Source: Fidelibacterota bacterium
GTDB taxonomy: Bacteria; Fidelibacterota; UBA2242
Direction: 5' to 3'
NCBI GenBank assembly: GCA_049975265.1
Contig: JBNGDF010000005.1
Location: 129,640-163,126, forward strand
DNA length: 33,487 nucleotides
A program made the translations under genes and the position numbers. A model generated the notes under the pieces. That model was not told the origin of the DNA and ran no database searches. It saw only the letters and a program-made list of their open reading frames with translations. This document shows, piece by piece, positions 5,912 to 29,400 of this stretch; positions within the stretch are counted from its first letter, which is position 1; every line of letters starts with the position of its first letter.

Positions 5912-6595
5912 CTAATTGATATGATTCATGGGGGTGATGTCGGCATCGATAAAGATTTCGACACGGCGGTTTTTGGAACGCCCTTCGGCGGTATCGTTGC
6001 TGGCGATCGGTCGGAACTCGCCGTATCCCAAAGCCGAAAACTTACCCTCATCGATACCCGAAACGGCGCTGAGATATCGGACCACTTCCAGCGCCCGCGC
6101 CGAACTGAGTTCCCAGTTGCTGGAGTAGCGTCCCCCACGGATCGGCCAGTTATCCGTATGACCCTCGACGCGGATTTCAATATTGAGCCGGTGATTGTTT
6201 TTACGCAGGGCGTCGTGGAAAGCACGCAGTTCGGGGTCTTCTACCTGTCCGAGCAGACGCGACTGCCGGACGGTGCTGCCGATGTGGTCGAGAAGTGGAC
6301 GGAGCTCCGGGGTAATTTCGGCGGAGTTGATATCGAAAAAATATTCCCCGCTGACCGTCAGCTGGACCCCCTTGGTGGTCCGTTGAATATCGATATTGCG
6401 ATTCAAAGCCTTTTCACTGATATAGGTATTCAGCTTCTGTTCCGTTTCGGAGAGCAGCAGGTCCAGCATACGATAAATATTGTTTTCAGCCTCGTTCAGG
6501 ATAACCGTCATGAGAATAAAGAAGGTCAGCAACAGCGTTACCATATCCCCATAGGTGACAATCCAGGCGGCTTTGGGCGAATTTGTTTCACTCAT
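5912..6595 (-). CDS. MotB-family protein (TM with conserved Asp plus OmpA-like peptidoglycan-binding domain)
   Basis: WIVTYGDMVTLLLTFF TM signature; VEGHTD, SNWELSSARA, GYGEFRP and NRRVEI motifs. No motA in the window. Confidence 0.9.
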   Translation of the reverse strand: MSETNSPKAAWIVTYGDMVTLLLTFFILMTVILNEAENNIYRMLDLLLSETEQKLNTYISEKALNRNIDIQRTTKGVQLTVSGEYFFDINSAEITPELRPLLDHIGSTVRQSRLLGQVEDPELRAFHDALRKNNHRLNIEIRVEGHTDNWPIRGGRYSSNWELSSARALEVVRYLSAVSGIDEGKFSALGYGEFRPIASNDTAEGRSKNRRVEIFIDADITPMNHIN

Positions 6596-9090: not shown

Positions 9091-9119
9091 TTGACATTGA
9101 ACAGTATCAAAACTATTTT
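9091..9119 (+). promoter_or_regulatory. Putative sigma70 promoter of the rightward surface-protein operon
   Basis: Perfect TTGACA (9091-9096), 17-nt spacer, TATTTT (9114-9119), about 60 nt upstream of the ATG at 9181, in an AT-rich divergent intergenic region. Confidence 0.65.
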
Positions 9120-9180: not shown

Positions 9181-11352
9181 ATGAATAAAACCTTGAAAAA
9201 CTTCACAGCTTGGCTGATTTTCCTGCTGGCATGCTCTGCGCTTCAGGCAGAGGATTACCGTCTGATTATCACCTATCCGCAGGCGACGAACGAGTGGGGT
9301 CGGCGTCTGGCTTCCGGTGAAAATAAGACGGTGATGAAAATCCAGTTTATTGATCTGGATGATGCAAACGACTACAAACTGAGCCAGTTCAGTGTGCGAC
9401 CTTTTACCGATCGGGAGGAGTGGTATATTGACTCGCTGCAGCTTTGGAAGAATGTAGATAATTATCCCGGTAGTCTGGACCACCGCAGCGATTCGCTGAT
9501 CGCCACTCAATCAATGATCGGGCTGGATGCCCTGACGACCAATATGACGGCGATGCCATTCACACTGGGCGGCGAACTGCCGCTGCAGGATACCACGACC
9601 TTCTTCGTAACCATGATCGCTCAAAACTGGTTTACCGATGCAGCGAATGACCGGGAGATTTCGGACCAAAACGGTGCCCAGATCGGCATTACCGTAGATA
9701 AAAACACCAATGATATCGTTATTTTACGGACCGATAACAGCAGCGGAACTGCCAATGACTGGGCGGGCAACGCGTCGAAAATATTTACGGTTCAGGCGGT
9801 CAATCTGCCGGTGTATATCTACAACCGTACCCGCACTGCCGAAGAGGACAGCAATCTGTTTTATCCCCGCTATCTGGAGCTGGATGATAGTAATGCCAGT
9901 CGGGCGCAAAGCCTGACCGATCTGACAGTCGCCGCCCATGTTTTTCTGCCGCACGATGGCAGCGTGAACGGGGACAGCCTCTCCTATGCCTCGTTTAAAA
10001 TCGGCTGGAGCAACCAGCATCTTCAGCTCGACTCCATTGCTTTCGGCGATCTCTGGGATAACAAGCAATACCAGGAGGACGGCTGGGACGGCAGTGGTTA
10101 CGGCGTGACAACGCTGCCCGGTGATACGACGGTCTCGGTGGTGCGATTCGAAGCCGTGGTCATGGGTAATTCCTCCAGCCCGGAAAATTATGTGGACATC
10201 GCCAATAATTCCCTGGGCGTTTTTTATTTTAAAGTATTGCAACCGGGGGTCAGCCCGCTGTTTTTGGACGATGTCCGGATACTGGATCAGTGGGGCATTC
10301 CTTATCACTGCTATCGTACATTACAGAATGATGCCGATGATACAGCTGAAAAATATGATGCCTGGGTCAAGATGATCCTCGGTGACTTTGCCGGCGGTTT
10401 AGGGACTCTCACCGACGGCGCCTGCGATGGTCGGATCGATCCGGTGCACGATGTCACCCTCTTTGCCGATTATTTCTGGATGAATGCCGACTCCGCCGAC
10501 TGGTACAGCCGTTTCGATATCGGTGATTCGATATCGCACAATCCCGATGAGCTGAGCCCCGACGACACCACCAACTTTTTTGACCTGATGGTGATCGGAA
10601 CAAACTATTATCGGACATTGCGGGGCGATTTCAGTCAAAAACCGGTGGCTTTTGCCGGTTCAGCGAAGGTACACCTGCAAATTTCTGAGAATGAAACCGC
10701 CCCGGACATTTTACAGATAAATCTTGAGATGGAGAAAATACCGGAGCTGGTTTCCGGACAGATCAAGTTATGCTTTGATCCGGAAGTCTACGCCTTCAAG
10801 GGATTCTCACTTGGAGATTGGGTCGCCGCGATGACACCGCAAAATGTATTTCTCTATGCGCCCGGCGAACTGAAAAAGGGGATCCTGGATATCAATTTTC
10901 TGGCGCTGGAAAAACCGGTTAGCGGTTCGGGCTGTTTTCTAAATGTCGATTTCGAAAAGATTGGTAGCGGGACAGACATGTTCCGGCTGGATCATGTTGA
11001 TCTGAGAGACCGCTATTGTCAGCAACTGGTGGTCAATATTGATGAACAAATCACGCCGGTCGTCCCAGCGGACTATTTTTTAACCGCCTGCTACCCGAAT
11101 CCTTTCAATCCGGTTGTGAACCTGAGCTATCAAATTCCCGTTATAAATGCCGGGATTTACCGTATTTCGGTTTTTGACCTGCAGGGCAAAATGATCCGCG
11201 AATTGTCCGCCGATTATCATGCGGCGGGACAGTATCACCTGGTCTGGGATGGTATGAACGGTCAGAAGATGCCGGTCAGCAGCGGTATCTATATTGTCCG
11301 GTTTGATGGTAACGGCGTCTCGAAAAACTATAAAATCACCCTCCTGCGGTAA
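9181..11352 (+). CDS. Secreted protein: N-terminal beta domain - cohesin-like - dockerin-like - cohesin-like - T9SS/FlgD-Ig CTD (paralog A)
   Basis: Signal peptide (ALQA|E). Cohesin-like patterns (FKVLQPGVSPLFLDDVRILD; IKLCFDPEV...GILDINF...SGSGCFLNVDF...LRD). Duplicated Ca-loop/helix (GDF...DGRIDPVHDVTLFADYF and FDI...PDDTTNFFDLMVIGTNY). CTD YPNPFNP...WDG.N...SSGIYIV...KITLLR. Confidence 0.78.
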   Translation: MNKTLKNFTAWLIFLLACSALQAEDYRLIITYPQATNEWGRRLASGENKTVMKIQFIDLDDANDYKLSQFSVRPFTDREEWYIDSLQLWKNVDNYPGSLDHRSDSLIATQSMIGLDALTTNMTAMPFTLGGELPLQDTTTFFVTMIAQNWFTDAANDREISDQNGAQIGITVDKNTNDIVILRTDNSSGTANDWAGNASKIFTVQAVNLPVYIYNRTRTAEEDSNLFYPRYLELDDSNASRAQSLTDLTVAAHVFLPHDGSVNGDSLSYASFKIGWSNQHLQLDSIAFGDLWDNKQYQEDGWDGSGYGVTTLPGDTTVSVVRFEAVVMGNSSSPENYVDIANNSLGVFYFKVLQPGVSPLFLDDVRILDQWGIPYHCYRTLQNDADDTAEKYDAWVKMILGDFAGGLGTLTDGACDGRIDPVHDVTLFADYFWMNADSADWYSRFDIGDSISHNPDELSPDDTTNFFDLMVIGTNYYRTLRGDFSQKPVAFAGSAKVHLQISENETAPDILQINLEMEKIPELVSGQIKLCFDPEVYAFKGFSLGDWVAAMTPQNVFLYAPGELKKGILDINFLALEKPVSGSGCFLNVDFEKIGSGTDMFRLDHVDLRDRYCQQLVVNIDEQITPVVPADYFLTACYPNPFNPVVNLSYQIPVINAGIYRISVFDLQGKMIRELSADYHAAGQYHLVWDGMNGQKMPVSSGIYIVRFDGNGVSKNYKITLLR

Positions 11353-11369: not shown

Positions 11370-13565
11370 GTGAACTACATTAAAAAATATAGCCTCCTTT
11401 ATTGTCTGCTATTGCTGAGCTTTAGCCTGCCACTGCGGGCGCAGTATGGCTGGTATTTTCAGTATGCGGCGAACAATTTATCAACGCACTGGCGGCATCT
11501 GGCTTCCGGCGACACCACAGTGATTGCGAGTTTTACCTTTTCCACGGATATCCCGGACGATCCCACCGAATACTATTTAAAAGGTTTTCGTTTGTGGCCG
11601 ATCACCAATAGCACCACCGGCTGGTTTGTGGACGAACTGCAACTGTATCTGGATCGGGGTGACCGTGTTTTCGGGCGGGATGATTCGCTGATCAGCGGCA
11701 GGCTGGCGATTACGATTCCCGATCAGTCCGATAGCGTGAATTCGATCCATTTTAATTTCGGTGGGGATTCGTTACGTTTGAACGACAACTGCATGCTCTT
11801 TGTCATTGCGGTTGTTCACGACTGGCGGGATGCAGACCCGGAGAATCTGGAGATTGACACCACCACCAGCGGACCTTATGGAAAATGGTTCAGTATTAAA
11901 GTTTTCAAAGAGGATATAACCGTTTCGCCACCGGCTGTTTTCAATAGTATCAATCAACCCACGCTAGCCCAATTTTATTACCGGGCACTGAATCTGCCCG
12001 TTACAATCCGCAATAATCTGGCGTCCGCGGCGGAGGATGACAGCCCACGACGGAACATGTTTTATCCGAATTTCCACCCACTTGATGGAACAAATACCAG
12101 CAGAAGCCAGCGCCTTGACGATCTCTTCTTTTATGCTGACATTTACCTGCCGCTTGCCAATGACAGTATTCAGTTCAGTCTCAAGTCGGCTTCGCTGCGG
12201 TTTGGTTTCGATAACCGGATTTTGGAATTTGCCTCGGCAGAATATGGCGATATATGGGGAGATGACGCCTGGTTTTATGTGGATACGGCAATCACGGCCG
12301 TGGCAGATGCACAGGGTCTCGACACACTTTTTGAATATTCAATATTGCAGTATAACGCCGTTTTTTCCGGTAGCGAGACAGTGAACAGCAAATATGGTAT
12401 CATCGATTCGAACAGTGTCGTACGGCTGAAATTCAATGTCATCAGACCGGGAATTTCGCCGGTCTATTTGCGGGAAATCGATCTGCGCGACCGTTACGGG
12501 ATTCGCTATCATTGTTATCAGCAGTTACAGAACGGTGCGGCAGGAGAGAGTGGCGCGGTGACTGACCGTTTTGACGCCTGGGCGAAGTTCAATCTCGGAG
12601 ATTTTACCTATGCCGGTGGTGAGGAGGTGAGTACCGCCGGTACGGGCGACGGACGTGTGACCTGGGAGGATGTCAGCCTGTTTTCCGATTATATCTGGTT
12701 AAATTCCGGCAGCAGTCGCTGGTACAGGCGCTTTGATATCGCCTCCGCTCATTCGATATCGCCTGCGCAGTCCTGTCCGGATGATACGACTAATTTTTAC
12801 GATCTGATGGTACTCGGGACCAACTATCGCCGGACGTACCGGGGTGCGTTTAATCAAAAGCCGGTCAACCGCGAACCGGATAGCCTTGAAATAAGATTAA
12901 TCGGCGCGGATTTTTCTGACGAACGGCAAGTACGGATTCAGCTGCAAAATATCACCGATCTGCAATCAGCCCATCTGATCCTTCGGTTTAATCCTGAGGA
13001 GCTACGCTTTACCGACATTGAACAGGGCGCCTGGACGAGCAGCGTGATTGAGAATTGTCTGTTGCTGGTTCCCGAAAAGCCATTGGTAAAGGGGATTATT
13101 GATATCAATTTTGTATCTCTGGATCGGTCGCTCAACGGGGAGGGTGACTTTATTCAGGTTCGTTTCAGGAAATGTCAATCGCGGGCGGCAATGCCGGAAG
13201 TAGTTGCCTATGATTTTCGGGATAGTGATTGCCGTTCGCTGCCGGTGGTTCAAGCAGCTGCGCCCGAATCCGCGATTCCGGCGACCTTTACCCTGCTGCA
13301 GAATTTTCCCAATCCTTTTAATGCCGGGACGCAGATCACATACACTATTGCGGAAACGGAGGAGGGTTGTTACAATCTGGCTGTTTACGACCTTCGCGGA
13401 AACCGGGTTATTACACTGAGGGATGCTGTTCACTCCGCCGGTTCATACCGGCTCCGGTGGAACGGCTGCAACCGGCATGGTCAGGCGGTGGCGAGCGGGG
13501 TCTATTTTTTATGTCTGGAAAATTCTGAAAAGGCATGGCGGAAAAAGATAATGTTGCTGAGATAA
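11370..13565 (+). CDS. Secreted cohesin-dockerin-cohesin-CTD protein (paralog B)
   Basis: GTG start; signal peptide LRA|Q. Full-length similarity to paralog A (LASG, ALNLPV.I.N, FYP, PG.SP, PDDTTNF.DLMV.GTNY, KGI.DINF). CTD QNFPNPFN...WNG.N...ASGVYF...KKIMLLR. Confidence 0.78.
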   Translation: MNYIKKYSLLYCLLLLSFSLPLRAQYGWYFQYAANNLSTHWRHLASGDTTVIASFTFSTDIPDDPTEYYLKGFRLWPITNSTTGWFVDELQLYLDRGDRVFGRDDSLISGRLAITIPDQSDSVNSIHFNFGGDSLRLNDNCMLFVIAVVHDWRDADPENLEIDTTTSGPYGKWFSIKVFKEDITVSPPAVFNSINQPTLAQFYYRALNLPVTIRNNLASAAEDDSPRRNMFYPNFHPLDGTNTSRSQRLDDLFFYADIYLPLANDSIQFSLKSASLRFGFDNRILEFASAEYGDIWGDDAWFYVDTAITAVADAQGLDTLFEYSILQYNAVFSGSETVNSKYGIIDSNSVVRLKFNVIRPGISPVYLREIDLRDRYGIRYHCYQQLQNGAAGESGAVTDRFDAWAKFNLGDFTYAGGEEVSTAGTGDGRVTWEDVSLFSDYIWLNSGSSRWYRRFDIASAHSISPAQSCPDDTTNFYDLMVLGTNYRRTYRGAFNQKPVNREPDSLEIRLIGADFSDERQVRIQLQNITDLQSAHLILRFNPEELRFTDIEQGAWTSSVIENCLLLVPEKPLVKGIIDINFVSLDRSLNGEGDFIQVRFRKCQSRAAMPEVVAYDFRDSDCRSLPVVQAAAPESAIPATFTLLQNFPNPFNAGTQITYTIAETEEGCYNLAVYDLRGNRVITLRDAVHSAGSYRLRWNGCNRHGQAVASGVYFLCLENSEKAWRKKIMLLR

Positions 13566-13583: not shown

Positions 13584-14657
13584 ATGAGAAAGATTTGCAT
13601 CGGATTTTGGGTCAGTTTTTTCATCTGGACGACGTTGCCGGCGCTGACCACGCCCCGGGTGTCCATGCGGACAAGCAGCGATGAGATCAGTGTGACGGAC
13701 ACCTTTACAGTATCTCTGGGGGTGACGCGGGGCGATTCCATGCGGACGGTGTTTCTGCGCCTGAATTATGACGAGCAGAAGGTTCGCTACCTGGAGGGCA
13801 CACCGGGCAGTCTCTTCCAGGGAGCGGTATTCTGGGATATCCATCCCGAACGGATCGAGTCCGACAGCATGATCTATATGGTGGCGGTGATGCTGGGCGC
13901 CGGGCGTTTTGTTTCGGCGCCGGGGAACTTTTTCAATATTAATTTCGTGGCGCTGGACAGCGGTCAGGCGGTTTTCACCCTGGATTCGTTAAAATTCGTT
14001 GATCCCAACCTGAACTATTTCGACGGTAGCTGGGATACGCTGAAAACGGTGATCGCACCGACGGACACTTTCCCGCCGGGACCGGTTTCCGATTTTAAGG
14101 TTCAGGAAGACGGTTCGGGACGTTTGAAGCTGCACTGGCGCAATCCAAACGATGAGGATTTTGAGGGGACCATTATTCTGCGCAGTACCGAGAGTTTTAT
14201 CCGGATAGTAGATACAAGCAAAACGGTGGTATATGACGGGATCGGTGAAACATATACCGATATTAATCTGGTGGATGATGCCGTCTATTACTATACCGCC
14301 TTTGCGTATGATGAAATTCCCAACTATTCGGAGCCGCGGTTTCTCAAAGGGGTGCCCAAGGGCGAATATGTCTTCACCTATCCCAATCCCTTCGATCCCA
14401 ACGACGGAGTGGGGACGACCTTTAACATTCTGTTCACAAATAATACCTTTGTGGATATCACGATTTATGATGCCGTCGGTAACCACGTGATTGATTTGTA
14501 TAAAGCGGAACAGGTTTTTGCCAATGAACCCACCAAGACCATGACCTGGAACGGGCGCAACGGCGACAATGAGATGGTGGCGAACGGGGTGTACTATTTT
14601 GTGGTCAAGACCAGTCAAGGAGATCAAAAAATTGGAAAAGTTGCGGTTCTCAGGTAG
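13584..14657 (+). CDS. Secreted cohesin-like - FN3 - CTD protein
   Basis: Signal peptide. Cohesin-like domain (DTFTVSL...LRLNYDEQKVRY...G.LF...INFVALDSG.AVFTLD). FN3-like domain (DTFPPGPV...LHWRNPND.DF...YYYTAFAYD...NYS). CTD YPNPFDPN...WNGRN...VANGVYYF...GKVAVLR. Confidence 0.78.
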   Translation: MRKICIGFWVSFFIWTTLPALTTPRVSMRTSSDEISVTDTFTVSLGVTRGDSMRTVFLRLNYDEQKVRYLEGTPGSLFQGAVFWDIHPERIESDSMIYMVAVMLGAGRFVSAPGNFFNINFVALDSGQAVFTLDSLKFVDPNLNYFDGSWDTLKTVIAPTDTFPPGPVSDFKVQEDGSGRLKLHWRNPNDEDFEGTIILRSTESFIRIVDTSKTVVYDGIGETYTDINLVDDAVYYYTAFAYDEIPNYSEPRFLKGVPKGEYVFTYPNPFDPNDGVGTTFNILFTNNTFVDITIYDAVGNHVIDLYKAEQVFANEPTKTMTWNGRNGDNEMVANGVYYFVVKTSQGDQKIGKVAVLR

Positions 14658-15798
14658 GCGTTTGACGCTGAACCATGTTCTGTTGTTGATTGTTCTGATG
14701 ACGGTCGGAATTTCGGCGCAGAGCGGCGGCTACGCCGGTAGTTATCTCAGTCTGACTAGCAGCTCCCGAGCCTTTGGCATGGGTGGTGTGGCGATCGCCT
14801 CCGCCGAGGATGCCACGACGGTTTTTATCAATCCCGGGATGGTCGGCATGCTTTACGACGGGAATTTCAATGCCACTCTGGCGAAACTGGGCTATGACCG
14901 GAATTATTACGATATGGCGTTTACCTATCCGCTGAACTCCTGGGGTAGTCTTGGTTTAGCCTGGGCGCAGCTGTCCGTTGACAATATCGAAGGGCGCGAC
15001 CGGGATGGATATTTCACGCAGAACTTTTCCGATCTGCAGAGCGCCCTGATGCTGGCATACAGTAAGACGATCGGCGATAATTTTTCGGTGGGTTTCACGG
15101 GGAAATACCTGTATCACAGCTTGGCAGGCTATTCCGCCAACGGGGTGTCTTTCGATATCGGTTCGGCGATTTACATCGGCGAGCGCATCACCCTCGGGGC
15201 GGTTTTCCGGAATCTGAACTCTTCTCTGAAATGGAACACATCCAGTCAATTGAAGGAGACTATTCCGACCCAAATCGGGGTCGGGATCAGCTATTTTGAT
15301 CTGTTCAATGTGCCGAATTTACTGGTGGCGACGGATTTGTATATGCAGGGCGGCGATTTTTCCGGCTATCATGCCGGGGCTGAATATATCATCCGGGATC
15401 TGGTGCTGCTGCGGGGCGGTTATTCGGACCGGGGCATCAGCTACGGCGGCGGATTGCAGGTCGCCGGTTTCCGGTTTGATGTGGGCGTGATACCCGAAAC
15501 GTTTGGAAACGTCTCGCGGGTATTTTTTACCTTAAGCTGGCGCTTTGGAAAGCAGCCGGAAGCTATTTATGAGCCTCCCGTACAGGAAACTCCGCCACCC
15601 GTACAGCAGACGGCGCCCCCACCGGTGAGTACCGAGACAAGAAATATCGTTTTAATTACCGCCGGTCCGCTGGCAAATGAAAGAGCCGAGGTGATCAGCC
15701 AGAATCCGGCTGAGAATACGATTACCGTGCGCCTGCTGGCATTGCCGGGTTCCGATCCGATTACATTGACTATGGATCAGGTGAAATTTTTGGAGTAA
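14632..15798 (+). CDS. PorV/PorQ-family (FadL-like) outer-membrane beta-barrel with Pro-rich linker and C-terminal KOW-like domain
   Basis: Start re-assigned to TTG 14632 (AAGGAG 9 nt upstream), giving signal peptide ...VGISA|Q. PorV-type motif SRAFGMGG..A...DA...FINPG. Amphipathic strands (FSVGFTGKY, SFDIG, LRGGY) end at FTLSWRFG. Confidence 0.82.
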   Translation: MEKLRFSGRRLTLNHVLLLIVLMTVGISAQSGGYAGSYLSLTSSSRAFGMGGVAIASAEDATTVFINPGMVGMLYDGNFNATLAKLGYDRNYYDMAFTYPLNSWGSLGLAWAQLSVDNIEGRDRDGYFTQNFSDLQSALMLAYSKTIGDNFSVGFTGKYLYHSLAGYSANGVSFDIGSAIYIGERITLGAVFRNLNSSLKWNTSSQLKETIPTQIGVGISYFDLFNVPNLLVATDLYMQGGDFSGYHAGAEYIIRDLVLLRGGYSDRGISYGGGLQVAGFRFDVGVIPETFGNVSRVFFTLSWRFGKQPEAIYEPPVQETPPPVQQTAPPPVSTETRNIVLITAGPLANERAEVISQNPAENTITVRLLALPGSDPITLTMDQVKFLE

Positions 15799-15813: not shown

Positions 15814-17346
15814 ATGGAAATAAAATTGAATGTACCGATCCTTGCGTGGACAGCCTTTTTGCTGCTCTACCTGTGTGCATCGCCGGTGCAAGCCCAGCGG
15901 CGGCGCCCAGTGACGACCAGCGCCGGGACTCAAACAGTGCGAAGTCCCGCTATGGACGTGGATCAGATCGAGCAGCGTAATCAAGCCCTTTTACAGCAGA
16001 TTATGAGTTTACAAAAGGAACGGGATTTTTATAAAAAGAAAATCACCGACTGGACAGAGTTGCAGAAGAATAAGGCTCCGGAACAGCCGAAGCCAGAAAA
16101 AGAGGAAACGAAGCCGGAGGGAGCAATCCAACCGGGCGCTCTGGCGGCTTACTATCTGCCGATTACACCCGGTATTCTGGATACCTTGATTCAGTACCGA
16201 GATCTGTATCGCCGTTCCAGAAAACCGGAACCGGTGGTCCTGGATAAGGATTCGCTGTTTCAGACGGCGCAACGTCTGGCGGTCATGGGGCGGTATCACG
16301 CAGCCCGGGAGGGTTACGAGCAGCTGATTCGTTCTCCTCAGGCAAAGGATACCCATTTTCTGGAATATGGTAAATTTCTCTACAAAATCGCTGATTATCA
16401 ACGGGCACTGGAGATGCTTTCGGGGGTGACCGGCGGTAATCGGGAGCTGGCAGAAGCCTCATATTATAAAGGGCGTATCTATCAGCTGACCCATGCGCCG
16501 ACGGTGGCGCAGATAGATTTTTACCGCAGCCGCTACCTCCAGCCGGAATTTCCGGGTGTTGAGACTGCCAGAGGATTTCAATTTTTTCTTGAGGGTGAAT
16601 TGGATTCCGCCCGCACTGTGTTTACCCGTCTTCTGCAGAAACAGTCGGTCTTGAGCGGGGAGATTTATTACGGTCTGGCACGGGTCTATGAAGCCCAGAA
16701 TGAGCGTGAGAAAGCCGTGACCTGTTATCAGCGCAGCCTTGTTCACGATCCCCTGTTTGTTAATAGTTATGTGGCACTGGCGAAAATTCTGTACGAGCTG
16801 GAAGATTATCAATCGTGCATCCTGTTTTTCCAAAAGGCAGCGGAGGCTGCTATTGATCAGCAGATGCGGTATTATTATACAGGGCGTTCATATTATTTTT
16901 TAAAGCAATGGGACAAAGCCCTGGCGGAATTTCAAAAAATAGACGACAGCGCCGAAGGATTACATATAAAAAAAGAGTGGCTTGCCAAAATTTACTATAT
17001 CCGCTGCCTGATGGCGCGGGAGACGGGCGATCACCGGCAGGCGCTGGATTATTTCCGCAAAGCCCGGGAGATCAACCCCGACGCTTACAGCTGGATGACG
17101 GCAGCACTGGAGGATCTGGGTCGTATTCATACCAAAGATTTGGATTACAACGACGCATTGAGTTACTATTCCCGGCTTGTCAGGCTGAATCCGGCGGACA
17201 TGGAGACGTTGCTGAAAGTCGGACAATTCTATTATTATTTGGGAGAAATTGACGAAGCTCGCCGATATTTTACCCTTGCTTTGAACGATACGGAGACCGC
17301 CGATCGGGCGGGTTACTGGCTGCGACAGATCAATGCGATTCCATGA
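15814..17346 (+). CDS. Exported TPR-repeat protein with N-terminal coiled coil
   Basis: Signal peptide VQA|Q; coiled coil IEQRNQALLQQIMSLQKERD; many TPRs (IYYGLARVYEAQNEREKAVTCYQRSL, YYLGEIDEARRYF). Confidence 0.85.
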   Translation: MEIKLNVPILAWTAFLLLYLCASPVQAQRRRPVTTSAGTQTVRSPAMDVDQIEQRNQALLQQIMSLQKERDFYKKKITDWTELQKNKAPEQPKPEKEETKPEGAIQPGALAAYYLPITPGILDTLIQYRDLYRRSRKPEPVVLDKDSLFQTAQRLAVMGRYHAAREGYEQLIRSPQAKDTHFLEYGKFLYKIADYQRALEMLSGVTGGNRELAEASYYKGRIYQLTHAPTVAQIDFYRSRYLQPEFPGVETARGFQFFLEGELDSARTVFTRLLQKQSVLSGEIYYGLARVYEAQNEREKAVTCYQRSLVHDPLFVNSYVALAKILYELEDYQSCILFFQKAAEAAIDQQMRYYYTGRSYYFLKQWDKALAEFQKIDDSAEGLHIKKEWLAKIYYIRCLMARETGDHRQALDYFRKAREINPDAYSWMTAALEDLGRIHTKDLDYNDALSYYSRLVRLNPADMETLLKVGQFYYYLGEIDEARRYFTLALNDTETADRAGYWLRQINAIP

Positions 17347-17478: not shown

Positions 17479-20400
17479 ATGCGGCGTCCAGCTTTTATCG
17501 TCATTTTTCTATCGCTTTTGGGCGGTTATTCAAACGCCTTAGCGAATACGGCGCCCTACTTTACCGGGGAGGTGGCTGATACCAATTTGACCGAAGATGT
17601 TTACTGGAGCACCTGGTTGATGGCTGCCGACGATGACGAGGATCCGCTTAGTTATAATTTTGCCAATGATGTCCCCGCCGGGATGACGATCAATACCACT
17701 TCAGGGCGGATTACCTGGACGCCGGATAATGATGCGGTTGGGACGCACCGGATTCTGGCTTCCGTGTCGGACGGTAGCCTGACCGCTTATCTGGAGTTTT
17801 TTCTGCACGTTCAGAATGTCAATGATCCGCCATTCTGGGTCAATACAACCGACGATACGGTCACTGTGGCGGAGGACAGCGAGCTGGAATTGACGGTGAC
17901 GGCGAACGATGACGATTTACCCCACGGCGATCATATTACCTACTCCATCATCCGGGGTGATAATGTCAACATTAATCCCGTCACCGGAAGGATCAGCGGA
18001 TCACCGGACAATAGCAATGTGGGCTTTCAGACGATTACAGTCAGAGCCCGGGATGACAGCACCGCCGCGATTGAGTGGTCCTTTGTACTGGAGGTTTTGA
18101 ATACGCCGGTGGTGTTTACAAACATGCCGCCGATAGCAATTAATGAGGATGATCCCTTCGGATTTGACCTGAACGCCGATGACGAGGGACAGGGCAACAC
18201 GGTTTACTATTTTCAGAGCGGCTTTCAACCGGAATGGATGGGAATTGACGCTACCACCGGTTATATCAGCGGTATTCCGAACAATCTACATGTCGGAACC
18301 GAGACGGTGAAAATTGTTGTTGACGATGATAACGGCTCCACCGATACGCTCTCCTATGAGCTGACCGTTATTAATCGCAAGCCGGTGATTACCAGCCCGA
18401 CGCTGCACTACGCTACCGAGGATGTTCATTTTGCTCTGGATATCCATGCCGACGATGAAGGATTGGGAACCACCACTTATCAGTTTTTAGATGATTTAGA
18501 ACCACATCCCGATTGGCTGAGTCTCCGAACAAATGACGGCGTGATTTCCGGGACGCCTAATAATACCCATGTGGGAACGAATTCTTTCTATCTGGAATTC
18601 CATGACGGTCATGATGGAAAGGATACCACTCAATTTGTGATCAATGTAGCCAACGTTCCGGTGGTGATTGACAGTACCAATCTGATCTATGCCATTTCAG
18701 AGGATCAGGAGTACTACTATAAATTTACCTCCAGTGACGATGGTCAGGGAACGGTAACCTATCACGGTATCAACCTGCCCGACTGGCTGGCGATCAATCT
18801 TTATTCCGGAGTTTTGCGGGGCACTCCGAACAATGAGGATGTAGGCGATTATAATCTCTCAATTTATGTGTCAGACGGGACAGATAGCGACACAGTGGAT
18901 TTTACGATTCATGTGGAAAACCGGCTTCCCCAGCTGGAATCTTCCCCGGTGGCGAGTGTTGAAGAAGATAATCCCTATACTTACGACATTGATTATGATG
19001 ATGAAGGCGAAGGCGCGGTTTACAGATGGTTAATCCAGCCAGCCTGGTTGAGTCTGAATCCTTCAACCGGCGTAATCTCAGGAACACCGGACAATAGTGA
19101 TGTAGGCGAGCACGTGATTTCGGTACAGGTTGATGACGGGAATAGCGGAATCGTCAGTCACACCTTTACCGTCACGGTTATTAACCGTAATCCGGTATTT
19201 ACACCGCAGGCGGATACCACAGTGACCCAGTATGAATTACTGACCATTGATCTGGATACCGATGATGAAGGCGATCCCCAGGTCACCTATGAAATTCTGG
19301 AAGCACCGGAGGGGGCAGAAATATCGCCAAACGACGGAATTTTCAGCTGGACGCCGGCAAACGCCCAGGTGGGAACCCATGCGATCAGGATTTCCGGGAC
19401 GGATAATCACGGTGGCGCGAGCACCTTTGATTTTTCTGTGACGGTGTTGAACTCGATTCCGGTCATCAGTTCGTCTCCACCGCTGACCGCAACGGAGGAT
19501 GCTAATTACTATTACGATGTTCAGTGTAATGAAGAGGGCGACGGCGATGTCAGTTATTCGCTGACCACGGCACCCGACTGGCTGAGTATTGACGCCGATG
19601 CCGGAATCCTGCAGGGCGTCCCCGGTAATCCAGAGGTAGGCGCTCATCTGGTAACAGTGCGCGTAAACGACGGCAACGGCGGCTTCACCACTCAGTCATG
19701 GACGATTACGGTGCAGAACATTAATCCCTCCATTGTGACCGAGGTTCTCGATCCGGCAACAGAGGATTCGGCGTACAGTTTTCAGATAGACTACATTCCC
19801 GCCAACCAGGGTGACCACACATTTTCGATTGTCGGTGATAAGCCGGGCTGGCTAAGTATTAATGCTTTGAACGGACGTCTCTCGGGCACGCCCACCAACT
19901 CAGAGGTGGGGTCGGACTCCATTATGGTAAAGATTGCCGATGATTATGGTGGTTACGATCAGAAGCGTTTGGAAATCGTGGTCAATAACAGCCTGCCGCT
20001 CTTTACGACAACCGACGATGTTACGATCACGGAAGACGAGGCGCTCAGCTGGGATATTGATACGAACGATGAGGGCGACGAAGGCTCCGGCACCAGCGGG
20101 TACAATCTGGTGGAAGCACCGGATTGGCTGTCCATTAATGCCACCACCGGCGAACTGACCGGAACGCCGGTTGACGATGATGTCGGGGCAGAATCTTTGA
20201 CTATTCGTTATCAGGATGGTAATGGTGGGATCGTGACGCTTAATCTAAATCTCATCGTTGTCAATAATCCGCCCACGATTACGAGCCTCAGTCCCACCGC
20301 CACCGCCATCGAAGGTGTTAATTATTCTTTTCAATTTACATCCGACGATGACAATTGGAATCCCACATACACTTCAGCAGGCGAGCTGCCTGCGAATATT

Positions 20401-23400
20401 AACCTGACAACCGACGGGCTGCTGAGCGGAATTCCCCTGAACGCCGTCGTGGGTAATCATGCCATCAATATTATCGTCACGGATAATAACGGCGAGCAGG
20501 ACAATCTGGGATTTACCCTCTCGGTTGCAAATGCCGCGCCCACGATCACCGGATATACCGTTTCCAACCCCAAGTCAACCGTGGTGGACACGGTTTACAT
20601 CACTGAGGACATTGCTTATACAATTGATTTTTCCGCCGATGATGAAGCCGACGGCGCGGCAGCGCTTTACACAATCAACCATAAACCCGGCTGGCTGACG
20701 ACGACCAGTACGGTAAACGGAACGCTTGCCGGCACGCCGGACAATCGTCATGTGGGACTGGATTATGTGGATGTTACCTTTAATGACGGCAACGGCGGCA
20801 GCGATAATATGCGCTTTTATCTCCGGGTTCAGAATGTGGCGCCCGCTTTTATTGATGCACCCGCCAGTCTGACCGCTACTGAAGACGCAGAATTTTATTA
20901 CGATCTGAATTCTTCCGACGAAGGACAGGGTACGATCACCTATTCCATCACAGCCGGCGATCTGGGCTGGTTAACCCTGGACGCCACATCCGGTGAGATC
21001 AGTGGAACACCCGACAATGACGACGTTGCCGACGGTACCGATGTAACTTTCCGGGTGACCGACGGCAACGGCGGCGCGGCGACAAAGACCATCGTGTTTA
21101 TTGTTGGAAATACCAATGACAACCCGACCTGGATATCCGCCCCGGTAGCGGGTTCAACGGTTACAACCGCCGAAGATGCTGGGTATAGTCTGGATATTGA
21201 TGCCGGCGATGTGGATGTGGATGATAATCTCACCTACAGCTTGACGACCAATCCAACTGGTATGACGATTAATAGTACAACCGGTGTAATTAACTGGACA
21301 CCGGATAATAGCCAGGTAGGCGATCACCCGGTCACCGTCAGAGTCGAAGACGAAAACTCTGCCGCAATCACCCGGTCCTGGACCGTGCGGGTGACGAATA
21401 TAGTCTCACCGATCACACACCCGGCGACTGATGATTTTACCCCTTCAATTGCAGTGACGGCTGTTGCCGATACCTTCTATTTAATCGAAGATACGACTTA
21501 TACTCTCGATCTGTCGGCGCCGGATGAAGGTGTCGGCGCAGTAAGCAGCTACAGCTTCGATGAATTTCCCAATCCGGGCTGGATAACATTATCAAACGCT
21601 GTAACCGGACTGGTGTCGCTTACGCCGACCAATAGTGCCGTGGGACTTGACTCTTTTCTGGTATATTTCAAAGATCAACCGGCTTCCCGGGATACGATTA
21701 CAATTTATTTGAGTGTCGAGAATATTGCCCCGGAGATTCTCACGGAGGGTCCCTTTTCCGCCACGGAAGGTATCGCATTTTCCCGGCAGTTGCAAAGCAG
21801 CGACGATGGGGACGGCACGCTGACCTGGAGTTTTGTAAGCGGCAAACCGGGCTGGCTGGAAATTGATGCCAACAGCGGAGAACTGAGCGGTACGCCGCAA
21901 AACGCCGACGTCATCAGCGATGCCAGTTTTATAGTTCAGGTCAATGACGGCAACGGCGGCGTGACGCAAAAATCCTTCGATTACAGTGTGGAAAATGTCA
22001 ATACGCCTCCTTCGATCACTGTTGTTCCCGGGGGAATTATCACGATTACGGAAGACGTCCTTTATACAACCGACGTGGATGCCTCCGACGCCGATGCCGG
22101 CGATGTCCTGAGTTACTCGCTTAATACGGCACCAACGGGGATGACGATCAATGCGACCACGGGGGTAATCCAGTGGACGCCGACCAATGCTCAGGTGGGC
22201 ACACACACCGTCACCGTGAAGGTGACAGACAGTGAAAGTGAATTTGCCAGCTCCTCCTGGCAACTGCAGGTACAAAACATGAACGATCCGCCCGAATGGG
22301 TTTCGGTACCCAGCGGTACGATTCAAACCGACGAGGAAGCCTTGTACAGCGTTACCCTGCAGGCGGAAGATATTGATTCCGGGGATCATCTGACCTATTC
22401 ACTTTTGGCAAATCCGGATGGAATGACCATAGATGCCAATACAGGGCTGATTGAGTGGACCCCTGATAATGATGATGTCGGCTTACATGATATTTCTGTG
22501 CGGGCTGTTGATGATTCCGCGGCAGCCATTACCGCCGGCTGGACGCTCGAGGTGCGCAATGTCAATGATACGCCGGTCTGGACTTCGGTTCCAACCGGGA
22601 CCATCACGAGTCCGGAAGATGCCCTTTATACAACCGATGTGGATGCAATAGATGCCGACGCCGGCGATGTGATTACCTACAGCCTGACCCAGAGTCCCCT
22701 GGGAATGACCATCAACGCCACTATCGGTGTGATCAGCTGGACACCCGACAACTCTCAGGTGGGTAATCACAGCATTACGATCAGGGCGACCGATCTGGCG
22801 GGCGCTTTTGTCTCACAAACCTTTACCCTGCAGGTGACGAACGTGGCGTCACCAATCGCTGCACCGGTGGCGGGCGACTTTACACCCTCTGCTGCGGTGA
22901 CAGTGGCGGCGGATACTTTTTTTATCAAAGAAGATACGGTTTACACACTGAATCTGACGGTACCTGATGAGGGTGTCGGTACTGCGAGCAGCTACAGCTT
23001 TGACGATTTTCCCAATCCGGATTGGGTCTCGCTGGCTGATGCCGCCAGCGGACTCGTCACCCTGACACCCACCAACGGCAGTGTCGGGCTGGATTCCTTT
23101 TTGGTCTATTTCCGGGATCAACCCGGTTCCCGGGATACGCTGACGGTCTATTTGCGCGTTGAGAATGTCGCGCCGGAGATTCTCACGGAGGGTCCCTTTA
23201 CCGCCACAGAAGGTGTGGAGTTTTCGCAACAATTGCAGAGCAGCGACGATGGCGACGGCACACTGACCTGGAGTTTTGTAAGCGGCAAACCGGGCTGGCT
23301 GGAAATTGATGCAAACAGAGGAGAATTGAGCGGTACGCCGGAAAATGCCGATGTCATCAGCGACGCCAGTTTTGTAATCAGGGTAGACGACGGCAACGGC

Positions 23401-26400
23401 GGCAGCGCCCAAAAAACCTTCGATTACAGCGTGATTAATATCAACAACAGCCCGGTCTGGACCGCGGTGCCGGAGGGAGTTGTCACCGTCAATGAAGACA
23501 ACCTCTATTCGGTTACGATTGCCGCCGACGATTCAGACCTGGATCACGGTGATATGATCAGCTATTCGCTGGTAAATCCGCCGGCAGGGATGATTATTAA
23601 TTCCGCTAGCGGTGTGATTACCTGGATACCGGACAATAGCCATGTGGGAGCGAATTCTGTCACCGTCAAAGCTACCGATCTGGAAAGTGCCGTTATTTCG
23701 GCTAATTTTACGGTTAACGTATTCAATTCGCCGCCGGTGATTGCCGCACCGGGTACAGGCGATTTTGCACCTGCGGGCGTCGTTACGGCGACCGCCGATA
23801 CATTTTTTATCTGGGAAGACTCCAGCTATACGGTGGATTTTACAGCCGATGACGAGGGGCTGGGCGGCGCCACCGTTTACCGGATCAGCGGTCTGGCAAA
23901 TCCCGACTGGGTGTCGCTGACAAACGCTACCGCCGGAGTTGCGCAACTGACCCCGCTCAATAGGGACGTCGGGTTGGATTCTATTCGGATAGTTTTTGAT
24001 GACGGTTACGCCACCGATACCGCACAGGTTTACATCCGGATTCGCAACAGCGCTCCGGAAATAATTACTGCCGGACCTTTTTATGCGACTCAGGACGAGC
24101 CCTTTGAAGCGGAGCTGGAAAGCACCGACGCGGATGAATTGTGCAGATATTCTTTTGTCGGTATCTATCCCGACTGGATGTCAATCAATGCTTCCAGCGG
24201 TCTGATTAGCGGCATACCGGACAACGATGCCGTGGGAACATTCCTGTTCACCGTGCGGATTGACGATGGCAATGGCGGCAGCGCCGATCAGAGCTACACG
24301 ATCCACGTAGCCAATACCAACGACCCTCCGGCTATCACCTCAGTACCTATTACAACCGTCATCGAAGATGAGTCATACGTTTATCATCTCAGCGCAATAG
24401 ACCCGGACGGCGATCCGCTGACCTATTACCTGATTACTAAGCCCGCAGGGATGACAATTGACGCCGGCAGCGGCATGATTCGCTGGATACCTGATAATAA
24501 TTTCAGCGGCTTGCTGATACCGGTCAAAGCCGGTGTGGCAGATACATCGGGTGCTGCGGTCGAGCAGAGCTGGAATATCAGTGTTGCCAATGCGCCACCC
24601 AATTTTTTAACCGCCTTTGCCTCCTTTGATGCCATTGAAGATTCTGAATTCAGTTTCGATCTGGATGTTGACGACGAAGGACAAGGTGTAACCAGTTATA
24701 TGGTCATTCATCTGCCGGGCTGGATGACATTGCTCAATTCGGTAACCGGCTTGATCGGCGGCACACCGGATAACAGTTACGTCAACAGCAGCGATTCGGT
24801 TTATGTGGAATTTTCCGATGGCAACGGCGGCAGGGACACCCTGAATTTACCGGTAACCGTCGCCAATGTCGCACCGGTTTTTAGCGCGCAGCCGGACACC
24901 AGTGTCACGGAGGGCAGTTCGGTTTTGATCAATCTGGATTGTGACGATGAATTTGCCGGCGGCGTCAGTTATACCGCTCCGGGCGGTCTGCCCGCCTGGC
25001 TGAGCCTGAACGCCACCAGCGGTGTATTAAGCGGTTCACCGGGCAATGCTGCCATTGGAGCTTACAATATATCAATCCGTGCGACTGATGCATCTGGCGG
25101 TTTTACCGCGATTTCTTTTCAGATTACCGTGGTAAATGGACCGCCGGAATTTACCGGGGTACCTCTGACCGCGATTGAAGAAGACAGTCTTTACGAATAT
25201 ACACCGGATTTGGTTGATCCGTCGGGAGATAATATATTCAGCCTGCTGACAAATCCCGGTTGGCTGACAATCAATGGCAGCACCGGCATGCTGAGCGGGA
25301 CGCCTTTGAATCAGCATGTCGGTGACAATACGGTCTCCATGAAGGTGGATGACGGTCTGAGTGCCTCAGATACCCTGGATTTCGTCATTACCGTCGTAAA
25401 CACGGCGCCGGTTATTACCACCGTTCCGCCAACTGCCGGTACCGAAGATTTACTCTACTCAGTGAACATCAATTGCTCCGACGAGGGTCAGGGAACAATG
25501 ATCTATACCGCCCTGCAAAAACCCGGCTGGCTGAGCCTGAATCCGAATACCGGGCTGCTGCGAGGCACTCCTATGAATCAGCATGTCTCGAGCGGTGACA
25601 GCATCGAAATCATGGTCAACGACGGTAACGGTGGATTCGACACCCTGCGATACTCTCTGGCGATTGCAAACCGGGGACCGAGTTTTACCCAAATATTTAG
25701 CGATACGACAATTACAGAAGACGATATGTTCTCTTTCGATATTGACAGCGACGATGAGGGTCAGGGAGCGACGAGTTACAGCTTTATAAACGAGGTGCCG
25801 GACTGGATTAATCTGGATACCGAAACCGGGTTGCTGTCGGGAACGCCCTTGAACCAGCACGTTGCCAGCTCGGTCGGGATGAATGTAAAAGTTGATGACG
25901 GCAACGGCGGCAGTCGCTCACAAATATTTACCATTACCGTACTCAATAATCCGGTGCGGTTTATCTCCGCGATCACCGACAGCATTGCGACACAGGGCGA
26001 GCTGTTCAGCTACGATGCCGACACCGATGACGAAGCCCAGGGCAACGGCGTTTATACGTTCGTAGGTCTGCCCGCCTGGCTGAACGGTGACGATACCACC
26101 GGTGTACTCGGCGGGACACCGGGCAACGATGACGTGGATACCTCGGCGATTACCATCCGATTCAACGATGGCAATGGTTCCATTGTCGAGCAAATGATAC
26201 ATGTCATTGTTGAAAACGCTAATGATGCACCCTGGCTGACGGCGACAGCGACGCAGGATACGATTTACGAGGACAGCCTTTGGACATTTCGTTTTTTTGC
26301 CCAGGACATTGATTCGGTATATGGAGACATGCTGAGTTTCGAGTTGCAGGCTTTTCCGTCTGCCATGGAGATTGACAGCGCCAGCGGCATCGTGAGCTGG

Positions 26401-29400
26401 ACGCCGCAGAACGACGCTGTGGGCGACGTCAGCTTTGAAATCTGGGTATTTGACAAAGCCCGGGCGTCGGATTCGCTGACCTTCCGGCTGCACATTCTCA
26501 ATACCAACGATCCACCGCAGATCATTGCCCAGGCGGATACAATTGCCCGGGAGGATGAACTTTTCAGTTATACAATCCGCTATGTAGATATGGATGCCGG
26601 TGATTCCCTCCGGTTTGAACTGCATTCATCACCACTCCTGATGGAGATCGATTCAATCAATGGTAGAATCACCTGGACACCGGACAACAATGACCGAGAG
26701 CAGAGCTTTGAGATCATCTACAGCGTCACAGATAGCAGCGGCGAGACCGATTTGGACACGTTTAATGTATTTGTGGAAAATGTCAACGACGCACCGGTTC
26801 TTGCGGTTCTGGATGAGTATACGTTTTCGGAGGATAGTTCCCTGATCATTCAAATATCCGACTGGTTTGACCGGGTAACGGATATAGATGATCCCGATTC
26901 GGCTCTGAGCTGGCAGGTGACTTCATTCAATACTGTTGTGGCGGTTGTCCGTGATGACTCACTTCTTCTGACGGCGCCGCAGGACTGGTTCGGACTGGAT
27001 ACCGGTGAAGTTGTGGTTTCCGACGGCGAATTGAGCGATACAACCCAACTGATTGTTTTTGTCCTGCCAGTCAATGATCCACCGGTGATTGCGGCGGAAT
27101 TTCCGGCGCTGATCACTTTTGACGAGGATGATTCCACGATACTCAACCTGAACGATTACGTCTCCGATGTGGATAACAGTGACCTGGAATTGAATTGGTC
27201 GGTCGAAATGGTGGAGGCTGAAAAGAGTACCGGTAATGAGGCATTGTCAAAATCCGAATCGGCTAAGAAAATTCCGCCAATAAAATCGTATTCGGTGAGT
27301 GCCAGGCGGTCGCTGCTGGTTAATTCCAACGGGGACAGCATCAGCATTGACATTGATCCGGAGACAAATCTTGCCAAATTCTACGCCCAGCCTAATTTTT
27401 TCATTGATGGTTTTGGTTTCCGGTTTATTGTGAATGACAGTACCGATGGTGCGGATTTCGGCTGCGACAGCGTTATCACGACAATCCGGGTGGAAGCCGT
27501 CAACGATGCGCCGGTTTTGGCGACATTACCGGAGCTGAATGCCGTTGAGGACTCGACGATTACGGTTGTACTTTCCGACTGGTTCGAATTTGTCAGCGAT
27601 GTGGATAATCCCGATACGACTCTGATCTGGACTATCATTGACGGGAATTACGTATCCGGTGTGATTGTTGATTCAATCCTCTCGATAATACCTTTGGAAA
27701 ACTGGTTCGGGAAGGATACCTTGCAGATAATTGCCTCCGATGATGAACTGCTGTCTGATACGGCAGATGTGATTGTGCATTATCAGCCGGTCAATGATGC
27801 ACCGGTCTTCAGCCCGATTCCCGCTATCTCCTTCCCTGAAGATGACACCTTTTATGTACACCTGAATGATTACGCCGCTGACGTGGAGACGCCTGACGAT
27901 GATCTGGTTTTCGGTTTTTTCCGGGTAGAAAATACCGGATCCGCGAGCACTTCTTTGAAATACCGGCGAGCTAAACCCGCAGTGGAATTCACCGGAATAA
28001 AGTCCCAAACCACCAGAGCAGTGTTCTATGATACTTTTAGTTCGTCGGACAGCATTATCATCGAGATTCATCCCGCGACGCATATTGCCACTATATCGGG
28101 CGCGCCGAATTACTACACGCCTACCCGTCCGTTCGGATTTACCGTTTCCGACGGTGAAGCCGCCGATACAGTGACGGTCATGATCGCCATCCAACCAGTC
28201 AATGACAAACCGGTTCTGGATTCACTGCCGCCGATTGTCTTTGTAGAGGACAACGTTTTCAGATTATCACTCTCAGAATGGGATTCGCTGATCTATGATG
28301 TAGAAGACCCGAACGATTCGCTGCGCTGGGTTTTCAGTACGCAGGGACCGGTTACAGTCCAGTACGATTCGTTGCTTCGTCAAATAACCCTTTCGGCACC
28401 GGAGAATTTTTACGGTTCGGACGTTTTGACGGCGGTTGTCAGCGACCGGGGCGGACTTTCTGATACCATGACGATCGCGATGACCGTCCTGCCCTTTAAC
28501 GATCCGCCGCAGATTGATTCCAGCCTGTTTGCCATTACCTTCGATCAGAAAGACACGGTGGAATACCAACTCGATATTTTCGTCAGCGACCGTGATCACG
28601 ACGTCCGATCCATGCAGTGGCGGTTCCATGCCGGCGAGTTTGTCTGTTTCGACTATACGGACACTTCCCGGTGGGTCAGATTCTGGACCGATCCTGACCG
28701 TTTCGGCATAGATTCTCTTCTGGCGATTGTCACCGATCCCCTGGGCGGCGCCGACAGCCAGTATCTGAAAATTACCGTCACGGATACGACCGAGCCGACC
28801 TTTGAATTGGCGATTTTCCAGAATCAGTTAGCCAGCCGCTTTGTGGAAATTGATGTCTTTCCGTCGGAATTGCTAGCTGACCGGGTACTGATAATCACGG
28901 ATGGAGATACCCTTCCGGTTTTGCAGGACCTGGATGCGGACAGTGTCATGTATTACAACGCCACTTACCAGATCGAGAAGACCGGAATCGTTCAGATCCG
29001 GGTTGAAGGCATTGACCGGGCTGGCAATCCGGGCGATTATGCCTATCAGATCGGCGTGTCCCGAATCAGCCGGGAGACCGGCGGGTCTCTGACCGGTCCC
29101 GACAGCATTATGTCCTTTCTGTTCGCGGCGGAGGCGGTGCCCATGGACCTCTGTGCCCTGTTTATTCCCTATAAAGCCGCCATCCGACCGGATACGGCGC
29201 TCGCCAAGGGCATGTTTGGCGATGCTGACTTTCCCGTTTCCGATGAGTTTGATTTCCGGATTCCCGTCGCCAGCCTTGCGGATAATGCGCGGATCATGTT
29301 TAATCTGGAGAATATGCAATTTCTGCAGCAGTACGCCGCATATCTGGGTGTTTACCGGCTGGAGAACGGAGAGTGGCGGTACCTGAAGACCTATACAAGC

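Follow-up and report, generated by a model that had tools for sequence, protein, structure and literature searches.

How a domain of the transcription machinery could come to stand at the end of an outer-membrane β-barrel, and what it could do there, are the questions raised by one gene in a 33,487 nt stretch of a Fidelibacterota genome (the window). NusG/Spt5 KOW domains are cytoplasmic adaptors of RNA polymerase and, to our knowledge, Spt5/NusG is the only universally conserved family of transcription factors. The reading that we favor, with a probability of roughly 0.45, is that a PorV/PorQ-family barrel carries an Spt5-like KOW domain, likely captured from an archaeon. This domain would serve as a handle for docking in the periplasm, its partner most likely being the TPR protein that the next gene encodes.

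Architecture and distribution of the barrel-KOW gene

The barrel-KOW gene spans positions 14632–15798 (+), in a frame that is open from 14569 to the TAA stop codon at 15796–15798. The likely start is the TTG at 14632, which overlaps the 3' end of the upstream gene and has a GGAG ribosome-binding site ahead of it; this GGAG..TTG arrangement is kept in 16 of the 17 orthologues examined. The first 29 codons (14632–14718, +) encode a predicted Sec/SPI signal peptide, called by inspection of hydrophobicity and cleavage motif in 18 sequences; its hydrophobic core is found, and it precedes Q-x-G-G, in 17/17 orthologues. It is followed by a β-barrel of the PorV/PorQ family (276 aa with 14 predicted strands; 14719–15546, +), whose last strand motif, FTLSWRF, ends at 15546. 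A flexible linker rich in Pro, Glu, and Thr comes next (15547–15645, +; 33 aa, 27% Pro), which corresponds to the Pro-rich tether noted originally; in the orthologues it measures 32–40 aa and is poorly conserved in sequence. The Spt5-like KOW tail occupies 15646–15798 (+) including the stop. Previously put at about 52 aa, it was delimited here to 50 aa (codons 15646–15795). The mature chain lacks any cysteine.

The barrel scored 106 bits on the NCBIfam model NF033709 (PorV_fam; cut-off 90), and orthologues scored 119 and 122 bits. The equivalog cut-offs were missed by far (PorV NF033710, 40.1 of 250 bits; PorQ NF033711, 91.9 of 220 bits; PorV2, 46 of 325 bits). An AlphaFold2 model of the full-length protein, based on a 17-row alignment, has 14 strands (E49–E277) and a five-stranded tail (pLDDT 76–85), with low confidence (pLDDT<50) for the N-terminal 45 residues, that is, the plug region, and for the linker. 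With the barrel as query, Foldseek placed PorV chains from structures of the T9SS translocon (8gl6_F and 6h3i_F) at the top, followed by FadL/TodX; together with the NF033709 score, these matches bear out the description of the barrel as PorV-like. In the established FadL/PorV topology the N-terminus is periplasmic and, with an even number of strands, the C-terminus would therefore be periplasmic as well. Thus, the signal peptide, the strand number, and the FadL/PorV topology predict that the protein is exported and that its tail lies in the periplasm, the side originally assigned to it.

When the tail was analyzed alone, it reached 21.1 bits on the Pfam KOW model PF00467 (E=2.6e-4), just below the gathering cut-off of 22.3, and E=6.5e-5 on the archaeal Spt5 model TIGR00405. 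The latter match was confined to positions 89–140 of the 145 profile positions, and the NGN domain was not matched. A profile of the whole domain matched along positions 5–53 of 55, with E=1.2e-6 among 1.84 billion proteins. An Spt5-KOW profile assembled without using the tail to select its sequences gave all 27 distinct tails scores of 17.9–38.1 bits; the maximum was 13.6 bits for 5,400 shuffles, 5,078 of which were reported, and 1.2 bits for reversed tails. Folded alone by AlphaFold2, the tail formed five strands with a pLDDT of 88. At E<=0.001, Foldseek returned three matches, namely Spt5 of T. kodakarensis, Spt5 of M. jannaschii, and NusG of Aquifex. The wide VIA structure search placed M. 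jannaschii Spt5 first (Z 8.5, 1.7 Å over 52 residues, 35% identity); by structure alone, Spt5 (Z 8.5) was tied with Thermotoga NusG (Z 8.3). The tail thus models as a five-stranded SH3/KOW domain with the KOW domains of Spt5/NusG as its best structural matches, and the resemblance to KOW claimed by the original prediction extends along the whole domain. No peptidoglycan-binding SH3 family occurred among the sequence matches or among the 50 structural matches listed, and nothing supports the binding of peptidoglycan, which had been proposed as one possible function. A search of the ESM Atlas with the tail gave no usable match.

The fusion recurs in related genomes. Full-length orthologues were found in 14 of 41 genomes, including that of the window, and the tail profile gave 15 strong matches among 401 Marinimicrobia genomes. 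These carriers comprise 13 of the 29 other genomes of the same family, one of the nine genomes of a sister family, and the host genome itself. Fusion loci were also found in genomes (13 loci) and metagenomes (15 loci), which in part represent the same records. Nearly all close homologues of the barrel are tailed (26/27); the remaining one, P0171, is a sequence cut within the barrel and not an orthologue that lacks the tail. A weak, partial tail match in genome G347 (E=2.3e-4, positions 26–48) was dropped as a chance match. An assembly artefact, such as a misjoined nusG, is ruled out by the independent assemblies and by the intact nusG elsewhere in the genome (in a secE-nusG-rplK locus); neither absence from orthologues nor an artefact is compatible with 15/401 tailed genomes and 26/27 tailed barrel homologues. 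Both outcomes that would have refuted the original prediction, this one and a tail that does not model as a five-stranded SH3/KOW barrel, thus failed to materialize. Our full-text literature search, whose coverage mostly leaves out subscription journals, retrieved no description of a PorV-KOW fusion among the papers listed, in line with the initial impression of novelty. The fusion is thus real and apparently undescribed; its barrel part belongs to a known kind of PorV-family carrier, and the archaeal-type transcription domain is the surprise.

The operon and candidate partners of the tail

In the host genome, SprA and PorU scored over their cut-offs (G000:C29:18713-24619 and G000:C3:101765-105055), and 98 ORFs had a CTD-like match. 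GldK gave only sub-cut-off matches. GldL, GldM, GldN, and PorP (TIGR03519) had no match in the genome, with the control searches equally silent. Possibly, therefore, the host has a T9SS that operates without the Gld motor. The genome encodes 18 members of the PorV family, the other 17 of which lack a tail and end at or near the last strand; 11 of the 18 genes adjoin a CTD gene. The barrel-KOW protein shares with the PorV/PorQ carriers (NF033709) the family score, the 14-strand barrel, the signal peptide, the CTD neighbors, and the presence of SprA and PorU. It differs from them in that it stays under the equivalog cut-offs, is one of 18 paralogues, carries a linker and a KOW domain, and occurs outside of the Bacteroidota, in a genome in which GldL/M/N were not found (controls silent).

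The gene lies in an operon of about 20 kb with a fixed order: three CTD proteins of 723, 731, and 357 aa, the barrel-KOW protein, a 510 aa TPR protein, and a 4110 aa adhesin. A sigma70-like promoter match (9091–9119) precedes the first gene, which encodes the 723 aa CTD-bearing secreted protein (9181–11352, +; assigned by family profiles and locus comparison). The gene for the 731 aa CTD-bearing secreted protein (11370–13565, +) is missing from locus L056, and in another locus (L051:6457-8831) its orthologue is broken into two overlapping frames. The 357 aa product of the third gene (13584–14657, +) is cohesin-like, with Cohesin and CHU_C over cut-off, and ends in a T9SS-type CTD that is over the cut-off of TIGR04183 and under that of TIGR04131, a score between types A and B. 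Its gene is directly upstream of the barrel gene in 25 of the 28 loci, the other three of which begin inside the barrel gene. Among the five CTDs nearest to the 357 aa type, four adjoin a PorV-family gene. The 357 aa protein is likely the cognate cargo of the barrel; that the barrel binds the CTD of its cargo, by its extracellular loops, is predicted from the gene neighborhood.

Immediately downstream, the 510 aa protein (15814–17346, +) is predicted to be exported, matched TPR families only, and is the candidate periplasmic partner of the tail. Its gene directly follows the barrel gene in 26 of the 28 loci, and in the remaining two the barrel gene is the last of the locus. Orthologues of the TPR protein (E<=2.4e-76, compared with 1.7e-22 for the next best match) are present in 16 of the 401 genomes, that is, in the 15 tailed genomes and in one whose contig begins at the TPR gene. 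This co-occurrence stems from one clade and one operon and therefore counts as a single event, which the other operon genes share. The TPR protein as the partner of the tail is thus suggested by gene order and co-occurrence. A prediction of the complex of the tail with the mature 510 aa protein, using 19-row alignments, scored 0.01 with controls that did not fold, and it speaks neither for nor against this pairing. In all loci with room for it, the TPR gene is followed by the adhesin gene (17479–29811, +), whose 4110 aa product is an Ig/cadherin-repeat, adhesin-like protein with a CTD and contains 28 He_PIG and 16 Big_9 stretches.

In the region 15895–16080, the mature TPR protein starts with Q-R-x-R-R directly behind the signal peptide and has a strongly conserved, N-terminal coiled-coil-like stretch with many residues that are invariant in 19 orthologues. 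Sec substrates do not usually carry a basic cluster so close behind the cleavage site.

In the arrangement that we envisage, the barrel would be a dedicated carrier that holds the CTD cargo of the operon, first of all the 357 aa cohesin-like protein, at the surface after export by SprA. The KOW domain, tethered by its linker, would reach a periplasmic partner, most likely the 510 aa TPR protein, and the surface that contacts FttA, S10, or Rho in transcription would be re-used for this contact. Together, the KOW domain and the TPR protein might do for this carrier what PorE does for PorP, or the C-tail of SprF for SprF, namely fix or organize the carrier beneath a very large adhesin. The most elaborate version is doubtful: in it, a captured Spt5 KOW domain was moved to the periplasm and links a TPR scaffold with the carrier and its giant adhesin, the T9SS itself seemingly being devoid of the GldLM/GldN motor and track.

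Parallels for parts of this arrangement are known from Bacteroidota. Two reports (PMC9143113, PMC12618676) describe type B operons of cargo, PorP/SprF, and PorE (PG1035-PorP-PorE and Fjoh_3952-3951-3950) and complexes of cargo, PorP, and PorE. The shared feature is the order of cargo, carrier barrel, and periplasmic TPR-containing protein. However, the barrel described here is of the PorV/PorQ family and not PorP, the cargo CTD falls between types A and B, the KOW tail has no counterpart, and the TPR protein has neither an OmpA_C domain nor a conserved lipobox cysteine; lacking OmpA_C, it is not a PorE. In SprF, according to another report (PMC12635249), a periplasmic C-tail attaches the carrier to the gliding track, with a Cys-x-Cys that is disulfide-bonded to GldK. 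The common principle is a carrier barrel with a periplasmic C-terminal tail as a separable attachment handle, whereas the barrel-KOW protein uses a folded domain and has no cysteine in its mature chain. An appendage after the last strand is also present in distant PorV-family barrels (P0172–P0174, P0181–P0182), which bear C-terminal TPR arrays or SLH domains; these differ in that the appendages are ordinary envelope domains, at 26–28% identity and in database proteins only.

The same archaeal-type periplasmic handle could grip another partner: the periplasmic face of SprA, a Skp-like protein, the MotB/OmpA-like protein encoded upstream, or itself. In the translocon of F. johnsoniae, PorV touches SkpA with its periplasmic face (PMC10994853), and, with GldL/M/N and PorP not found (controls silent), release of the carrier may need another link. 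For the MotB-like protein the loci diverge, the gene being upstream of the operon in five of them (L045, L046, L051, L054, L057) and absent from the available upstream sequence of L050 and L056. The 17 paralogues of the PorV family work without any tail, and the TPR orthologue is restricted to tailed genomes, both of which argue against such a partner. We regard it as rather unlikely and retain the TPR protein as the preferred partner.

Affinity and origin of the tail

The profile search of 1.84 billion representative proteins yielded 16 proteins: two fusions, three repeat proteins, and 11 proteins over the TIGR00405 cut-off. No bacterial NusG was among the 16. The 11 Spt5 proteins come from Methanopyri and Nanoarchaeia wherever names exist. 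In a sequence search of the PDB with the tail, the four best matches were all archaeal Spt5, and in the 401 genomes the tail profile did not pick up the NusG of the hosts themselves. Profile searches with 13 tails gave the same picture, as 13/13 matched TIGR00405 (best, 2.8e-9) and 8/13 matched nusG (best, 0.017). The mean identity of the tails was 31.5% to 106 Spt5 sequences, which were chosen independently of the tail, 21% to 36 NusG sequences, and 13% to 17 NusG paralogues. The medians of reciprocal profile scores were 23.8 bits for Spt5, 5.2 bits for NusG, and 5.1 bits for the paralogues. On the Spt5 profile, the tails nonetheless lie far below true Spt5 (medians of 23.8 and 83.1, respectively), and their scores overlap with the top of the bacterial range (18.7–19.2). 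In E. coli numbering, E144, A146, T159, L162, and T172 of the tail are of the Spt5 type, and two positions, L173 and Q177, are of the NusG type.

The three repeat proteins (P0019, P0022, and P0031) were artefacts and were removed from the matches. P0025, a database protein that begins as an SDR and ends as an Spt5, is likely a chimeric assembly.

In a tree of 55 rows and 54 columns, the tail and Spt5 were on one side of a branch with 99/95 support, which increased to 100/99 when four long rows were left out. In AU tests, from which these four long-branch paralogue rows were likewise omitted, a topology holding the tail with Marinimicrobia NusG was rejected (p-AU 0.011). Neither the grouping of the tail with UpxY (p-AU 0.067) nor an Spt5 clade that excludes the tail (p-AU 0.47) was rejected; therefore, with only 54 columns, nesting within Spt5 and the donor are not established. 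The Spt5 sample was skewed to Micrarchaeota-like sequences, and the tree was built without RfaH, CPR NusG, and eukaryotic KOW domains. Judged by sequence, the tail domain belongs to the archaeal Spt5 type and not to the bacterial NusG type, its closest similarity being to Spt5. Of the original label "NusG/Spt5 KOW," the KOW fold of this type thus stood, and the matches, identities, and tree narrow it to archaeal Spt5. The tail is probably archaeal in origin, although no donor can be named.

The comparison with archaeal Spt5 itself (TIGR00405; PDB 4zn3 and 9bct) shows a gap-free alignment of about 50 aa and TM scores of 0.84–0.87. The tail differs from these proteins by the lack of an NGN domain, the predicted export, GPL in place of GPF, fewer basic residues, and an altered β3–β4 loop; moreover, the periplasm offers it neither FttA nor an archaeal polymerase.

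A bacterial origin would make archaeal transfer unnecessary, as the tail could descend from a fast-evolving bacterial NusG paralogue of the UpxY/LoaP/RfaH type that drifted toward Spt5 and took up the same function. Compatible with this descent are the unrejected tail+UpxY topology (p-AU 0.067), the NusG-type residues L173 and Q177, the matches of 10/13 tails to NusG_myco (best, 1.9e-4) and of 2/13 to LoaP (best, 1.6e-4), and the presence of an UpxY-like gene in the genome. We nevertheless hold it to be unlikely: all 13 tails match Spt5 (down to 2.8e-9), identity to the paralogues is a mere 13%, the search of 1.84 billion proteins brought up no bacterial KOW domain, and the 100/99 branch places the tail with Spt5. 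Capture from an archaeon therefore remains the preferred origin.

The UpxY-like NusG paralogue (G000:C4:8065-8469; L022:1444-2028) is separated from nusG by about 6 kb and adjoins a gene that was labeled, by inspection, as D-Ala-D-Ala ligase-like. Among viral contigs, 14 pattern matches to the tail were obtained, none of which was confirmed, and a NusG scan of these contigs was empty.

Conservation and surface of the tail

Across 17 orthologues, the mean identity to the window sequence was 0.78 for the tail, 0.68 for the barrel, and 0.41 for the linker. The corresponding pN values were 0.155, 0.20, and 0.42, with pS at about 0.7 (0.69 for the tail). Conservation is higher in the tail than in the barrel, and the tail is under strong purifying selection. 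Two loops, G-P-L and L-P-x-S-x-P, are near-invariant across 34 distinct tails.

This pattern bears on the idea that the tail merely aids folding or biogenesis, by keeping the barrel soluble or by making up for a missing free C-terminal β-signal, and engages no lasting partner. The 17 paralogues do stop at or near the last strand, as the barrel-KOW protein does not, and KOW domains fold on their own (as in the model with pLDDT 88). Yet near-invariant loops and a conservation that exceeds that of the barrel go beyond the needs of a solubility tag, and barrels with TPR or SLH tails exist, so that we deem such an aid improbable.

The residues P140, F141, I164, F165, R167, T169, and E172 form the interface of NusG with S10 and Rho (PMC13753749). 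In the tail, P140 is kept, and the other positions are changed (F141L, I164A/S, F165L, R167G/D, T169D/E, E172T). The tail thus retains G139-P140, has Leu at 141 and a hydrophobic side chain at 165, and shows a new invariant Pro at 166; its hydrophobic surface of G-P-L and L-x-x-L-P is near-invariant, while R167, T169, E172, and I164 are lost. The number of K+R is 3.8 in the tail, compared with 7.7 in Spt5 and 5.9 in NusG, that is, about half of the basic residues of Spt5. In archaea, the KOW domain of Spt5 serves to dock proteins and buries 1,024 Å² against FttA (PMC11616081). Docking would thus be an ancestral property of the domain that is open to re-use.

A separate small KOW protein made from an internal start was considered and discarded, as no start codon is conserved in the linker of 18 sequences. 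A role of the tail in transcription is unlikely, given the missing NGN domain, the replaced S10 residues, the paucity of basic residues, and the missing conserved internal start. NusG paralogues act on long surface-structure operons, and the KOW ancestry and the long operon running from the promoter match at 9091 would suit a KOW domain that stays in the cytoplasm, as unexported precursor or small protein, and feeds back on transcription or translation of the 20 kb operon; besides the features just listed, the signal peptide in 17/17 orthologues and the intact nusG and UpxY-like genes elsewhere make this the least credible explanation.

An exported KOW domain that is under strong purifying selection and bears an archaeal signature would be a core information-processing domain that has crossed the boundaries of both domain of life and compartment. 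If the elaborate version given above, with a captured domain and a TPR scaffold, is true, it would represent a non-Bacteroidota way to anchor or energize T9SS carriers. The tail would also offer a small, soluble bait of 50 residues for probing how carriers are retained or released in those FCB phyla in which SprA and PorU occur but no Gld motor is detectable. The phenomenon concerns one small clade (15/401 genomes) of uncultured hosts.

Two other genes of the window deserve mention. The MotB-like gene (plug and OmpA domains) is located at 5915–6595 (−) without an adjacent motA, and three MotA/ExbB genes are present on other contigs. Beyond the adhesin gene, a transposase of the IS481 family is encoded at 32212–33369 (+), with a match below the cut-off (106.9 vs 224 bits).
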